This document shows positions 1 through 6,000 of a stretch of DNA of 64,000 nucleotides, one piece after another. The stretch's first letter is position 1; every line of letters starts with the position of its first letter. The stretch comes from Escherichia coli (lineage in GTDB: Bacteria > Pseudomonadota > Gammaproteobacteria > Enterobacterales > Enterobacteriaceae): the NCBI RefSeq assembly GCF_029227855.1, contig NZ_CP074356.1. One strand, written 5' to 3'. The position numbers were made by a program.

Positions 1-3000
1 TTTTGCATATGTGCTACGGTTAAATCAGGAAAACGTGCCACTGACATCCACGTTTCTTCTAATTGTGCTGCATTATCCTCAATGAATCGCAGTCTCTTTA
101 TGTAATAAACCTGCTCACCAGTCACTAAATTCAGCTCAGTCGCAATAGGGGGAGAAGCATCCTGCACTTCAAATTTCATAATCTGACTTCCTGCCTCCTT
201 GCCGCTTTTATGCGCAATTTCACTGAAGCTGTTCATGTGATCAATGTGTGCAACAAAATTCTTTTTTTGAATATATGTTCCTGAACCATGCTTTCTATGA
301 ATAATTCCTTCGCCTTCCAGCAAGGATAATGCCTTACGCAGGGTATTACGCGAAACATTATAACGAACAGCGAGTTCAGCTTCTGACGGCAACAAATCAC
401 CAACATGCCATGAATAGCCATTGATCTCGGATTTAAGTAAGCGGGCAATCTTTTGAAAAATCACTTTTGCACCTTTTAAGAGCCATTGAAAACAAGGAGT
501 TGAGTCCTGATTGGTTTATCGTATGGCCGAGTCGTTTAATTATTACCCTGATGTTGAACAACTTTATTGCTGTATTACTGTGATCAATGTACCAGGACGT
601 ATAGCTACTGCGGGATATGATATTTACACAATGTAATCTGTTATATACCAGTAAGGGAAAATATGAAAAAGATATTGTTAGTTTGCGCTGCGGGCATGTC
701 AACCAGTATGCTGGTTAAACGTATGATTGATCATGCTAACGCTATTTCACTTGAAGTTAATATTTCCGCATTGGCGATTGCAGAGGCTAAAGGGAAAATT
801 AAAAATAACGAAGTTGACGTTGTTTTACTTGGCCCGCAAGTTCGCTTTCAGAAACCAGAGATTGAAGCTGTTGCACAGGGGAAAATGCCTGTAGCTGTTA
901 TCGAGATGAAAGACTATGGCACCATGAACGGACAGGCAGTTCTTGAATTTGCGATGAAACTACTGCAAGAGTAAGAATCTAATATTATTAAACTATTACC
1001 TGAACTAACTTTTCACACATCATAAAATGGATATGGCATACATGCTTTATTGGGATGTATAAATATCCAGAACAACAGGTATAAAAAAATGGGATTAATG
1101 ACCTCATTCGAACGTGGAATGGAACGTTTTCTTGTTCCAGTTGCTATCAAGTTAAACTCACAAAAACATGTTGCAGCGGTGAGAGATGGATTCGTTTTTA
1201 CGTTTCCAATTATCATGGCAAGCTCATTAATTATATTAATAAACTTTGCCATATTATCGCCAGACGGCTTTATTGCCGGACTGCTGCATCTGAACAGCGT
1301 TTTTCCCAACCTTGAAAAAGCACAAGCTATTTTTACTCCGGTAATGAATGGCTCTGTAAATATCATGTCAATTATGATTGCTTTCCTGGTCGCCAGAAAT
1401 ATGGCGATTAGCTATGAGCAAGATGATCTTTTATGCGGATTAACGGCAATAGGAGCATTTTTTATTGTTTATACGCCATATCAGATGATAGATGGGCAAG
1501 CATTCCTGACGACCAAATATCTCGGCGCACAGGGGTTGTTTGTTGCTGTTATCGTTGCATTAATCACCAGTGAAATATTTTGTCGCTTAGCTCGAAACCC
1601 AAAAATCACCATAACGATGCCGGCAGCTGTACCTCCTGCGGTATCGCGTTCATTTAAAGTTTTATTGCCAATATTTTTTGTCATGGTGTTCTTTTCCGCA
1701 CTTAATTATTGCCTGACACTGATATCCCCGGCAGGATTAAACGATCTCATTTACACATTAATCCAGACGCCGCTCAAACATATGGGAACGAATATCTTTG
1801 CGGTAATTATCCTGGGGGCTGTGGGTAATTTCCTGTGGGTGCTGGGGATCCACGGACCTAATACCACCTCGGCAATTCGAGAAACTGTTTTTTCTGAGGC
1901 TAATCTGGAGAATCTCTCCTGGGCCGCTCAACACGGCACTACCTGGGGCGCGCCATATCCGATTACCTGGACTTCTATTAATGATGCATTCGCCAACTGC
2001 GGCGGTTCAGGTATGACGTTGGGGTTATTGTTGGCTATTTTTATCGCGTCTAAGCGTGCGGAATACCGTGATCTGGCAAAAATGTCGTTTATCCCCGGTA
2101 TTTTCAATATCAATGAACCGATAATGTTCGGCCTTCCTATTGTACTTAACCCCATCATGATGGTGCCGTTTATTCTGGTTCCCATTGTTAACTGTGCCAT
2201 TGGTTACTTCTTTGTTTCGATGGAAATTATTCCACCGGTTGCTTATGCCGTGCCCTGGACTACGCCCGGACCTTTAATTGCTTTCCTCGGAACCGGGGGA
2301 AACTGGCTGGCGTTACTGGTGGGTTTTTTATGTTTAGGTGTGGCGACAATGATCTATTTACCTTTTGTTATTGCCGCCAACAAGGTCAATAACTTAACAA
2401 CTAACGGATAATCCCATTTACACAGGAAGGAGATGTTGATGTTTGCAGATGAAGAACTTGTTATGGAGTTACTGATCAACGCGGGACAGGCACGTTCTGA
2501 TGCGATGGAAGCCATACGTTGTGCCGGGCAAAAAGACTGGCAGGGCGCAACTCAGCTAATGGCCAGTTCGGAATTAGCCTGTCTTCAGGCACATAAAATT
2601 CAGACCGCGTTAATTAGTCAGGATGAAGGTTGTGGCAAAATAGTAGTTAATTTAATTCTGGTTCATGCACAGGATCATTTGATGAATGCAATATTATGCC
2701 AGGATTTAGCCAGGGAAATTATTTCATTAAGAAAAGAGCTCCATGCCTGATTTTTTCCTCCAGTGCGATAGCTGGAGGAAATTATTACACTCTTAAGGAT
2801 AAGTCATGAATATAAAGACGCTTAACGTCAGCCTTTTGTCTTTTTCTATTATTACAGCATTGTTTCCGTTGAACGCGTTGGCAACAAAATTAACCATTGA
2901 GCAGCGCCTTGAACTGCTTGAAAATGAATTGTCGCAAAATAAACAAGAGCTGAGAGCAACACAGAATGAACTGGGGGTATATAAATCCCGACTTTCGACC

Positions 3001-6000
3001 TTACAAAAAAGTATTACGGAAAATAAATACAAATCAGCCTCACTTGCTGAAATATCAGCGACATCTCCCGTCGCTGATAACATCAAAAATGAAAACGGTG
3101 AACAGAACTCGTCTGCCGCAGCGCATACTATAAATGGATCGCAGCAAGTTGCCGTTATTGAAAGTAAAGGCGACAAAACCACTATCGAAAGCGTGACCCT
3201 GAAAGATATCAGTAAATATATAAAGGATGATATTGGGTTCAGCTATCAGGGGTACTTCCGCTCAGGCTGGGGTACCGGAAATCATGGCTCACCACAAACT
3301 TATGCAGCGGGTTCTCTGGGACGTTTTGGTAACGAGATGAGCGGTTGGTTTGACTTAACCTTAAATCAGCGTGTTTATAATCAGGACGGTAAAACGGCAA
3401 ATGCGGTCGTTACCTATGATGGCAACGTAGGTGAGCAGTATAACGATGCCTGGTTTGGTGACAGTGCCAATGAAAATATCATGCAGTTCAGTGATATTTA
3501 TCTGACAACGCGAGGTTTTTTACCCTTCGCGCCAGAGGCAGACTTCTGGGTAGGCAAACATAAACTCCCGCAATATGAGATCCAAATGCTGGACTGGAAA
3601 ACCTTAACCACGGATGTCGCTGCGGGTGTGGGGATTGAAAACTGGGCACTTGGTGTAGGGCTGTTTGATATGTCCTTAAGCCGTGATGATGTCGATGTTT
3701 ACTCTCGTGATTTTACGCGTACCAGTCAGATGAATACCAATTCTGTGGATGTTCGTTATCGCAATATCCCGTTATGGGATGATGCAACATTATCATTAAT
3801 GGCTAAATATTCCGCACCAAATAAAACGGATCAACAACAAGATAATGAAAATGACGACAGTTATTTTGAAATGAAAGATAGCTGGATGCTGACTTCTGTT
3901 TTACGGCAAAACCTGCAACGCGATACGTTTAATGAATTTACGTTACAGGTTGCCAATAATTCCTATGCCAGCAGTTTTGCCAGTTTCTCAGATGCCAGTA
4001 ACACGATGGCGCATGGTCGCTATTACTATGGTGACCATACCAATGGGATCGCCTGGCGTTTAATCTCTCAGGGCGAGATGTATCTTACTGACAATATTAT
4101 TATGGCTAACGCGCTTGTCTATTCTCATGGCGAAGATGTTTATAGTTATGAAAGTGGCGCTCATAGTGATTTTGACAGTATTCGCACCGTAGTAAGACCG
4201 GCCTGGATCTGGAATACATGGAATCAGACGGGGCTTGAATTAGGCTGGTTTAAGCAACAGAACAAAACACAGCAGGGTGTAACACTAAATGAATCGGCTT
4301 ATAAAACGACACTCTGGCATGCATTGAAAGTGGGTGAAAGCATTTTAGGTTCACGACCAGAAATTCGCTTCTATGGAACGTATATCAATATTCTGGATAA
4401 CGAATTATCGAATTTTAAGTTTAATGAGAACAGCAAAGACGAGTTTATGGCCGGCATCCAGGCGGAAGTCTGATGGTAATCTATTTTAGTTAAGGAGTTG
4501 TGTATGTCAGGATTTAAAAAAGGTTTTTTATGGGGCGGCGCGGTAGCCGCGCATCAGTTGGAAGGTGGCTGGAATGAAGGAGGAAAAGGCATCAGTATCG
4601 CTGATGTGATGACTGCTGGCGCTCACGGTGTGCCGCGTGAAGTGACAGAAGGCGTTATCGACGGACTTAATTATCCCAATCATGAAGCAATTGATTTTTA
4701 TCATCGCTATAAAACAGATATTCAGTTATTTGCCGAGATGGGATTCAAATGCTTTCGAACTTCCATTGCCTGGACACGAATCTTTCCGCAAGGTGACGAA
4801 CAGGAGCCGAATGAAGAGGGTTTAAAATTTTATGATGATCTGTTCGATGAATGCCTGAAGCAGGGAATGGAACCTGTGGTGACGCTTTCGCATTTTGAGA
4901 TGCCTTATCATCTGGTGACAAAATATGGTGGCTGGCGAAACCGTAAACTGATCGACTTTTTCATCCGCTTCGCATCAACGGTCTTCACGCGCTATAAAGA
5001 AAAAGTAAAGTACTGGATGACGTTTAACGAAATCAATAATCAGGTGAATTTCAGCGAAAGCCTGTGTCCATTTACTAATTCCGGTATCTTGTATTCGCCA
5101 GAGGAAGATATCAATGAGCGCGAACAAATAATGTACCAGGCGGTACATTACGAGTTAGTTGCCAGTGCCCTGGCGGTACAGACTGGAAAATCGATCAATC
5201 CTGAATTTAATATCGGCTGTATGATCGCCATGTGCCCCATCTATCCTCTGACGTGTGCACCCAACGATATGATGATGGCCACGAAAGCGATGCATCGTCG
5301 TTACTGGTTTACTGATGTTCATGCGCGTGGATATTATCCGCAACATATGCTGAATTACTTTGCCAGGAAAGGATTCAACCTCGATATCACACCAGAAGAT
5401 AATGCGATTCTTGCCAGAGGTTGTGTCGACTTTATCGGCTTTAGCTACTACATGTCTTTTACGACACAATTTTCGCCAGATAACCCGCAACTGGATTATG
5501 TTGAGCCACGAGATTTGGTCAGCAACCCTTATATCGATACATCCGAATGGGGATGGCAAATTGATCCGGCAGGGCTACGTTATTCACTCAACTGGTTCTG
5601 GGATCATTTCCAGTTGCCGCTGTTTATTGTCGAAAATGGATTTGGTGCGGTTGACCAGAGACAAGTTGACGGCACGGTGAACGATCACTATCGCATTGAT
5701 TACTTTGCTTCCCATATTCGGGAAATGAAAAAAGCCGTAGTCGAAGATGGTGTTGACTTAATTGGCTACACCCCATGGGGCTGTATTGACCTGGTTTCTG
5801 CCGGAACAGGGGAAATGAAAAAGCGCTACGGAATGATTTACGTCGATAAAGACAACGAAGGGAAGGGAACGCTGGAACGAATACGTAAAGCGTCGTTTTA
5901 CTGGTATCGGGATCTCATCGCCAACAATGGCGAAAATATTTGAGACTTCAGGAAGATATTACGGAGATATCAGGCTCTGTGATCAGAGCCTGACAATAAC

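Follow-up and report, generated by a model that had tools for sequence, protein, structure and literature searches.

The window analysed in this study is a 64,000-nt stretch of contig NZ_CP074356.1 (assembly GCF_029227855.1) from Escherichia coli that matches the chromosome of JNEC-KY178, a clinical isolate from Japan, at 100% identity; its first 5,943 nt carry six genes next to marB that are missing from the same site in K-12. The question raised by this locus is what these genes encode, and whether they were inserted beside marRAB or are long-standing residents that other strains have lost. We consider it very probable that positions 1-5943 represent the bgc (beta-glucoside/cellobiose) operon of E. 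coli, in which bgcR is transcribed divergently from bgcE-bgcF-bgcI-bgcH-bgcA, a locus that is already known and named, and whose gene products, regulator and phenotype have been published since 2009.

Gene content and protein families

A preliminary description of this DNA had proposed an accessory beta-glucoside/cellobiose phosphotransferase system (PTS) locus with its own glycoporin next to marRAB. The genes that it listed within 1-5943, along with a 56-bp gap to marB, were all located in their places, and its overall reading agreed with family profiles (NCBIfam and Pfam) and with comparison to K-12, for which protein identities were obtained by blastp. The regulator gene bgcR (1-464, minus strand) opens with a GTG at 464 and was assigned to the GntR/HutC group by the Prokaryotic Genome Annotation Pipeline (PGAP) annotation and by Pfam and NCBIfam HutC-subfamily matches. 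It is cut by the left edge of the window, such that codons 1-154 of 232 lie inside and 235 nt outside (the full gene spans 5766-6464 in the L001 numbering). Its product, 97.8% identical to the counterpart in uropathogenic E. coli (UPEC) CFT073, carries a GntR winged helix-turn-helix domain (PF00392, residues 4-65) followed by a UTRA domain (PF07702, residues 87-218), and its best NCBIfam matches were all of the HutC type.

The five structural genes lie on the plus strand. The first three encode the subunits of a PTS of the Lac/Cel family, namely the EIIB protein of bgcE (663-974, 103 aa; TIGR00853, 87 bits), the EIIC permease of bgcF (1089-2411, 440 aa; TIGR00410, 338 bits against a cut-off of 236) and the EIIA protein of bgcI (2439-2750, 103 aa; NF007768 and TIGR00823). 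The bgcF start at 1089 is the PGAP choice, and the reading frame can also open with a TTG at 1050. Membership of the PTS Lac family (TC 4.A.3) is borne out by the EIIC score and by the presence of both phosphorylation residues, since Cys8 of EIIB aligned with the phosphorylated Cys10 of ChbB and His76 of EIIA with His89 of ChbA. The fourth gene, bgcH (2806-4473), encodes a LamB-family sugar porin of 555 aa, as opposed to 557 aa in other strains. It has a signal peptide and is extended at its N-terminus by a coiled coil, and its Sugarporin_N (PF11471, E = 2e-6) and LamB (PF02264, E = 2.5e-79) domains span residues 30-56 and 147-555, respectively. The last, bgcA (4504-5943, 479 aa), encodes a 6-phospho-beta-glucosidase of glycoside hydrolase family 1 (GH1; NF007154, 1034 bits against a cut-off of 624) that keeps the catalytic motifs NEI (175-177, Glu176) and ENG (377-379, Glu377).

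Relative to their nearest K-12 proteins, the EIIB, EIIC and EIIA subunits were 44%, 37% and 49% identical to ChbB, ChbC and ChbA, the porin was 53% identical to BglH, and the GH1 enzyme was 60%, 50% and 49% identical to BglA, BglB and AscB. The products of the block are thus distant paralogues of the canonical K-12 genes and not duplicates; none exceeded 95% identity to bglH, bglA or chbBCA at their usual loci. Duplication or misassembly of bgl, chb or asc genes was ruled out by this range of 37-60% identity and by the occurrence of the block at one place per genome.

The porin (2806-4470) and the GH1 enzyme (4504-5940), though unrelated, were found to share one 90%-identity protein cluster of 14022 members. 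A fused or read-through gene call in one assembly or another has likely chained the two together, an artefact that could mislead cluster-based annotation.

Correspondence with the published bgc operon

The bgc operon (bgcR, bgcEFIHA) was the subject of a 2009 report (Neelakanta, Sankar and Schnetz, Appl Environ Microbiol 2009, 75:2284), which reportedly describes a porin BgcH, a divergent bgcR, CRP-dependent expression and a promoter point mutation (bgc*) that leads to BgcR-independent expression, and which is reported to place the locus in E. albertii too and homologues of it in Klebsiella, Enterobacter and Citrobacter. Our genome scan agreed with this distribution in that E. albertii, Citrobacter, Klebsiella and Enterobacter were all found to harbour the cluster. 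The gene order EIIB, EIIC, EIIA, porin and phospho-beta-glucosidase was recovered from reading frames and family matches, and the divergent GntR-type regulator adjoins the operon at a distance of 198 bp from bgcE. The same six genes occur between marB and eamA in CFT073, where their proteins are 96-99% identical to those of the window, whilst MG1655 and W3110 lack them; the locus therefore occurs in extraintestinal pathogenic E. coli (ExPEC) and not in K-12, and strains outside ExPEC commonly have it too.

A wider survey of complete E. coli genomes showed that the 6.28-kb block was covered over at least 80% of its length in 2492 of 5426 (46%), at a median of one place per genome and invariably between the same neighbours, and that only the marB/marA part matched in the remaining 54%. 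In MG1655 the convergent eamA and marB are 30 bp apart with nothing between them, as the preliminary description had stated for the K-12 map when it took the block to be strain-variable.

The literature on the operon is consistent with this assignment. A passage of a paper citing the 2009 work (PMC3585215) presents bgc as a five-gene operon including the EIIB BgcE, BgcF, BgcI and the phospho-beta-glucosidase BgcA, attributes to it the low-temperature use of cellobiose, arbutin and salicin, and names the GntR-type BgcR as its positive regulator. Two suppositions of the preliminary description have to be given up on this account: the substrate, which it had regarded as unknown, has been reported, and the repression by the GntR protein that it had suggested testing is opposite in sign to the reported activation, so that a deletion of that gene made in search of repression would start from the wrong premise. 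The substrates, the low-temperature phenotype and the role of BgcR as an activator are taken here from the literature. PMC4488073 adds bgc to chb, asc and bgl, which brings the cryptic beta-glucoside operons of E. coli to four. The six-gene block of CFT073 also corresponds to c1955-c1960, the genes designated 'PTS system, cellobiose specific' in PMC2831201, a comparative study that recorded them in several B1, A and F strains but in neither K-12 nor O157.

In gene set and order, divergent GntR regulator, presence in CFT073 and E. albertii and absence from K-12, the block is like bgc throughout, and nothing different in kind was observed. Relative to the CFT073 allele, the proteins of the window strain differ by 1-4% and the porin stops two residues early.

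Relationship to other beta-glucoside systems

Like bgc, the bglGFBH operon of K-12 is cryptic, handles aryl-beta-glucosides and encodes both a LamB-type porin of its own (BglH) and a GH1 phospho-beta-glucosidase (BglB), but it employs a single Glc-family EIIBCA protein (BglF) and antitermination by BglG at a ribonucleic antiterminator (RAT), whereas bgc combines a three-protein Lac/Cel PTS with a GntR/HutC regulator. There was no blastp match to BglF or AscF and no antiterminator gene in the block, and an Rfam scan of the whole window matched no family, whether structured RNA, riboswitch or RAT element. The chbBCARFG operon of K-12 shares with bgc the split EIIB, EIIC and EIIA of the Lac/Cel family (37-49% identical), but differs in its AraC-type regulator ChbR, its family 4 hydrolase ChbF, its deacetylase ChbG and its lack of a porin. 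A place in the chb (N,N'-diacetylchitobiose) group is likewise contradicted by the GH1 hydrolase, the GntR regulator and the scores of the three PTS subunits, all of which fell under the chitobiose equivalog cut-offs (281 against 760, 66 against 157 and 104 against 148 bits); no PTS subunit of the block scored at equivalog level against an NCBIfam model with a defined substrate.

The closest parallels in design are found in the Firmicutes, where the gmu operon of Bacillus subtilis (GmuR) and the bgu operon of Streptococcus pneumoniae (BguR) also have a divergent or adjacent HutC-type GntR regulator, Lac-family EIIB, EIIC and EIIA and a GH1 enzyme. BguR is called highly similar to BgcR in a passage of PMC3585215. 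GmuR and BguR, however, are repressors acting at a TGTNTANACA-type operator whilst BgcR is a reported activator, and the Gram-positive operons have no porin. Clusters of regulator, IIB, IIC, porin and GH1 enzyme, with or without IIA, recur in E. albertii, Citrobacter, Salmonella diarizonae, Erwinia, Kluyvera, Raoultella, Klebsiella, Enterobacter and Cedecea. The preliminary description had viewed the combination of a chb-type PTS, a bgl-type porin and a GH1 enzyme as a hybrid arrangement; the combination is real, but it is neither unusual nor new, since it was published as bgc and its recurrence in so many genera makes it a common enterobacterial operon type and, minus the porin, the usual Firmicutes design.

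The divergent control region

The 198-bp region between bgcR and bgcE (465-662) was aligned with its counterparts, giving 15 orthologous intergenic regions from more than eight genera (alignment A1), and was found to contain discrete conserved blocks. One of them is part of a predicted site for CRP, the cyclic AMP (cAMP) receptor protein, with the sequence TGTGA-TCAATG-TACCA (TGTGA-N6-TACCA; 579-594, centre 586.5), of which TGTGA (579-583) was invariant in all 15 regions. Downstream on the plus strand lies TATGAT (616-621), the predicted -10 hexamer of the bgcEFIHA promoter; within the pattern TAnnnT, T1, A2 and T6 were invariant or at least 90% conserved across genera. The centre of the CRP-like site is 29.5 bp from the first base of this hexamer, the distance that characterises class II CRP promoters, galP1 among them. 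This spacing predicts a start near 628 and would explain both the absence of a -35 element and the failure of a simple sigma-70 scan, which reported promoter-like sites no more often than in shuffled sequence and missed the predicted promoter. CRP dependence is in keeping with an invariant TGTGA and a conserved TAnnnT that are spaced as in class II. The CRP half-site and the -10 are identical in the window strain and CFT073, thus the window strain should be in the wild-type, weakly expressed state.

Two palindromes in the region may be bound by BgcR. The first, ATGTTGAACAACTT (551-564; a perfect AAGTTGAACAACTT in E. albertii), was retrieved by a palindrome scan, its centre lying some 70 bp upstream of the predicted start; it includes four columns of alignment A1 that do not vary (T100, A103, C104 and T108), and its position would suit an activator, making it a candidate BgcR activation site. 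The second, CTGTTATATACCAG (638-651), was retrieved by motif and palindrome scans within the predicted 5' leader and resembles HutC/DasR-type operators (TGGTNTANACCA). It is conserved in Escherichia only, with partial conservation in Citrobacter and Salmonella, and is possibly a second BgcR site. A GmuR/BguR-type operator shared across genera was also considered and rejected, as the motif scan found TGTNTANACA in Escherichia only. The predicted sites would fit the reported CRP dependence and positive control, and stop short of proving the place at which BgcR binds.

Weight of the bgc assignment

Several observations weigh against the identification of the block as bgc, or against the account of its control. 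The identity was drawn from matching descriptions and not from an alignment to the i484 bgc sequence; the protein records for the six genes, among those displayed for the window strain and CFT073 (exact and 90% clusters), bore generic PGAP names and no Bgc name; and the title of the 2009 report stresses septicemic and uropathogenic strains, whereas the block occurs here in 46% of complete genomes, including Shiga toxin-producing E. coli (STEC) O103 and animal isolates. The promoter, with its start, and the sites for CRP and BgcR were predicted in silico, and the position of the HutC-like palindrome, downstream of the start so predicted, is better suited to a repressor than to an activator.

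There is little discovery value in a locus recognised as one of the four cryptic beta-glucoside systems of E. coli. Its identification is nonetheless of use for annotation, as RefSeq/PGAP labels the six genes generically and the names bgcR and bgcEFIHA could be transferred to about 2500 complete genomes. What is added here amounts to modest refinements, namely the class II CRP promoter layout across genera, the ratios of nonsynonymous to synonymous substitution (dN/dS) that indicate purifying selection on a 'cryptic' operon, the equal divergence of island and flanks as evidence for loss, and a rare TGA allele of the porin.

Proposed function and natural substrate

As proposed from the families and residues above, beta-glucosides would cross the outer membrane through BgcH, a porin of the LamB/BglH type, and be taken up inwards by the EIIC protein BgcF. 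They would be phosphorylated at O-6 by a relay running from phosphoenolpyruvate through enzyme I and HPr to BgcI (His76) and BgcE (Cys8), and the resulting 6-phospho-beta-glucoside would be cleaved by BgcA (Glu176, Glu377) to glucose-6-phosphate and either glucose or an aglycone. Transcription would proceed from a weak promoter without a -35 element, needing cAMP-CRP at about -41.5 (class II) as well as the positive action of BgcR, and for this reason the operon would be near-silent, or 'cryptic', under laboratory conditions.

Such silence contrasts with the selection acting on the genes. The dN/dS values of the five structural genes ranged from 0.02 to 0.09 against E. albertii and from 0.07 to 0.13 against CFT073, which indicates that these 'cryptic' genes are under strong purifying selection and have been kept functional. 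One explanation is that cellobiose and the aryl-beta-glucosides are side substrates, and that the natural substrate or inducer of the same locus is another beta-linked sugar from cool, extra-host or plant-rich habitats; candidates include gentiobiose, sophorose, laminaribiose and glucomannan-derived beta-mannosides or glucosides, the phosphorylated form of which would be sensed by the UTRA domain of BgcR. The laboratory phenotype, which requires promoter-up mutants and low temperature, stands in contrast to strong purifying selection and would speak for another sugar, as would the failure of every PTS subunit to reach a substrate-defined equivalog cut-off. The cluster is also common among Enterobacterales that live with plants or in soil (Erwinia, Kluyvera, Raoultella, Cedecea, Buttiauxella and Ewingella), and the closest characterised regulators named in a passage of PMC3585215 are GmuR, which responds to glucomannan oligosaccharides, and BguR. 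Growth on cellobiose, arbutin and salicin has been published, however, and BglA, to which BgcA is 60% identical, is a known aryl-phospho-beta-glucosidase, although substrate range is beyond the reach of sequence alone. We therefore regard a different natural substrate as possible, albeit unlikely, and retain the reported beta-glucosides as the substrates of bgc.

The porin allele of JNEC-KY178

The bgcH gene of the window strain carries a premature stop (TGG to TGA at codon 556; 4471-4473, plus strand), recognised by comparison with CFT073 and K-12 BglH, that removes the C-terminal Trp-Trp. The window porin ends in ...IQAEV*, that of CFT073 in ...IQVEVWW* and K-12 BglH in ...AEIWW*, whilst the E. 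albertii porin reads ...EVW at the edge of the extracted stretch. The allele was detected in two of 5426 complete genomes (JNEC-KY178 and DETEC-P881), as opposed to 2223 with TGG, and this confinement suggests that it is recent. The C-terminal aromatic residue is part of the beta-signal for the assembly of outer-membrane proteins. It is characteristic of the LamB/BglH/ScrY sugar porins and is lacking from the window allele, whose family assignment is unchanged; since it is an assembly signal, the loss of Trp-Trp probably impairs insertion of BgcH into the outer membrane and is partly disabling. Small glucosides may still enter through general porins.

It could be argued from this lesion that the locus is, in the window strain, a decaying and effectively non-functional remnant heading for loss. 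The absence of the whole block from 54% of complete genomes would accord with such decay, as would a BgcR variant that has five substitutions relative to CFT073 and whose exact sequence was not found among 15 billion proteins. The six reading frames are otherwise of full length, though, with catalytic and phosphorylation residues intact; dN/dS is about 0.07-0.13 even within E. coli; the nonsense allele is recent and present in two genomes only; and the CRP half-site and -10 at the core of the promoter are identical to those of CFT073. Decay of the locus is consequently quite improbable, and an otherwise intact bgc operon with a porin that was probably impaired recently is preferred.

Borders and ancestry of the block

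The preliminary description had implied that the block was inserted, which is probably the wrong direction. At the left border, homology to K-12 ends within the last three codons of eamA, the C-terminus changing from ...KVGS to ...KVRG. At the right border (5997), pairwise homology to K-12 resumes 3 nt before the marB stop, and megablast matches in genomes lacking the block begin at 5988-5998. K-12 carries instead a unique 38-bp stretch that includes a hairpin of its own. No direct repeats, insertion sequence (IS) element, integrase or tRNA were seen on inspection of the borders. The G+C content of the block is 37-47%, as against about 50% in the flanks, and points to an older foreign origin.

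All six genes adjoin marB-marA-marR in E. albertii, at the same marB-adjacent site as in E. coli. Complete six-gene clusters were also identified at other chromosomal sites in Citrobacter sp., S. diarizonae and Erwinia psidii, and variant clusters, in which the GH1 gene is upstream on the other strand and IIA is sometimes missing, in Kluyvera, Raoultella, Klebsiella, Enterobacter, Cedecea, Buttiauxella and Ewingella. Nucleotide identity of the island to CFT073 was 96-98% (flanks 97-99%), and to E. albertii 80-85% (flanks 83-91%). A shared site in E. albertii, together with a divergence of the island that equals that of its flanks, suggests that the block was in place before E. coli and E. albertii split, and its absence from K-12-like strains is probably a matter of loss from an old position and not of recent insertion elsewhere.

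Carriage on plasmids was considered and rejected, since the four full-length matches in PLSDB were either 'plasmids' of 4.8-4.9 Mb or fragments of one assembly, i.e. chromosomal. The PLSDB records NZ_CP134663.1 and NZ_OL790696.1, each 4.8-4.9 Mb and evidently chromosomes, will inflate 'plasmid' counts for chromosomal loci in general.

That the block is a recently acquired genomic island, horizontally inserted between eamA and marB, is very improbable, for although its G+C below that of the flanks, its patchy strain distribution and its close homologues at unrelated chromosomal sites in Citrobacter and S. diarizonae would suit such an origin, the borders lack features of mobility, the E. albertii cluster occupies the same site, island and flanks are equally diverged both within E. 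coli and against E. albertii, and no genuine plasmid carries it. From the shared site, the equal divergence and the lack of plasmid carriage, we infer that any transfer predates the split of the two species.

A broader picture can be drawn in which bgc is an ancestral Escherichia trait under strong purifying selection and not a pathogen island, with a natural substrate or inducer encountered away from the warm gut, BgcR acting at two sites (the activating palindrome at about -70 and the HutC-type operator of the leader), and a clean deletion of the operon in about half of the lineages, K-12 included. Taken as a whole, this picture is offered tentatively, as a conjecture with rather poor prospects of holding in every part.

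Other features of the window and its surroundings

The convergent bgcA and marB (6000-6218, minus strand) are separated by a hairpin with a stem of 9-10 bp (5971-5992; -18.8 kcal/mol, z = -3.0), which lacks a T-run and is a probable bidirectional transcript end. Folding of the 114-nt spacer between the IIB and IIC genes was no better than that of shuffled sequences (z = -1.7). The marB gene evolves much faster than its operon partners, its protein being 82% identical to that of E. albertii as opposed to 95% for MarA and MarR; its dN/dS was 0.18 against E. albertii, and nonsynonymous change exceeded synonymous change against CFT073, in a small gene with few sites. In NZ_CP180600.1, from a pig isolate, the match ends in marA with ydeE as the neighbour, suggesting a deletion of marB, the bgc site and eamA.

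Further differences from CFT073 were observed elsewhere in the window. The yneK gene (9330-10445; 15330-16445 in the L001 numbering) is of full length (1116 nt) in the window strain, in comparison with a 102-nt remnant in CFT073. A 5.4-kb gene with the annotation 'ECSE_1600 family autotransporter' lies between lsrK and hipB (28602-34022), whilst the counterpart stretch of CFT073 has no lsr operon or autotransporter and passes from tam directly to hipBA, making this a second strain-variable segment of the window. The first gene of a ydeQRST-type fimbrial operon (37296-37535), in the position of the major subunit and beside a LysR regulator gene, is annotated as a 5'-truncated pseudogene, where CFT073 has an intact fimA-like gene.

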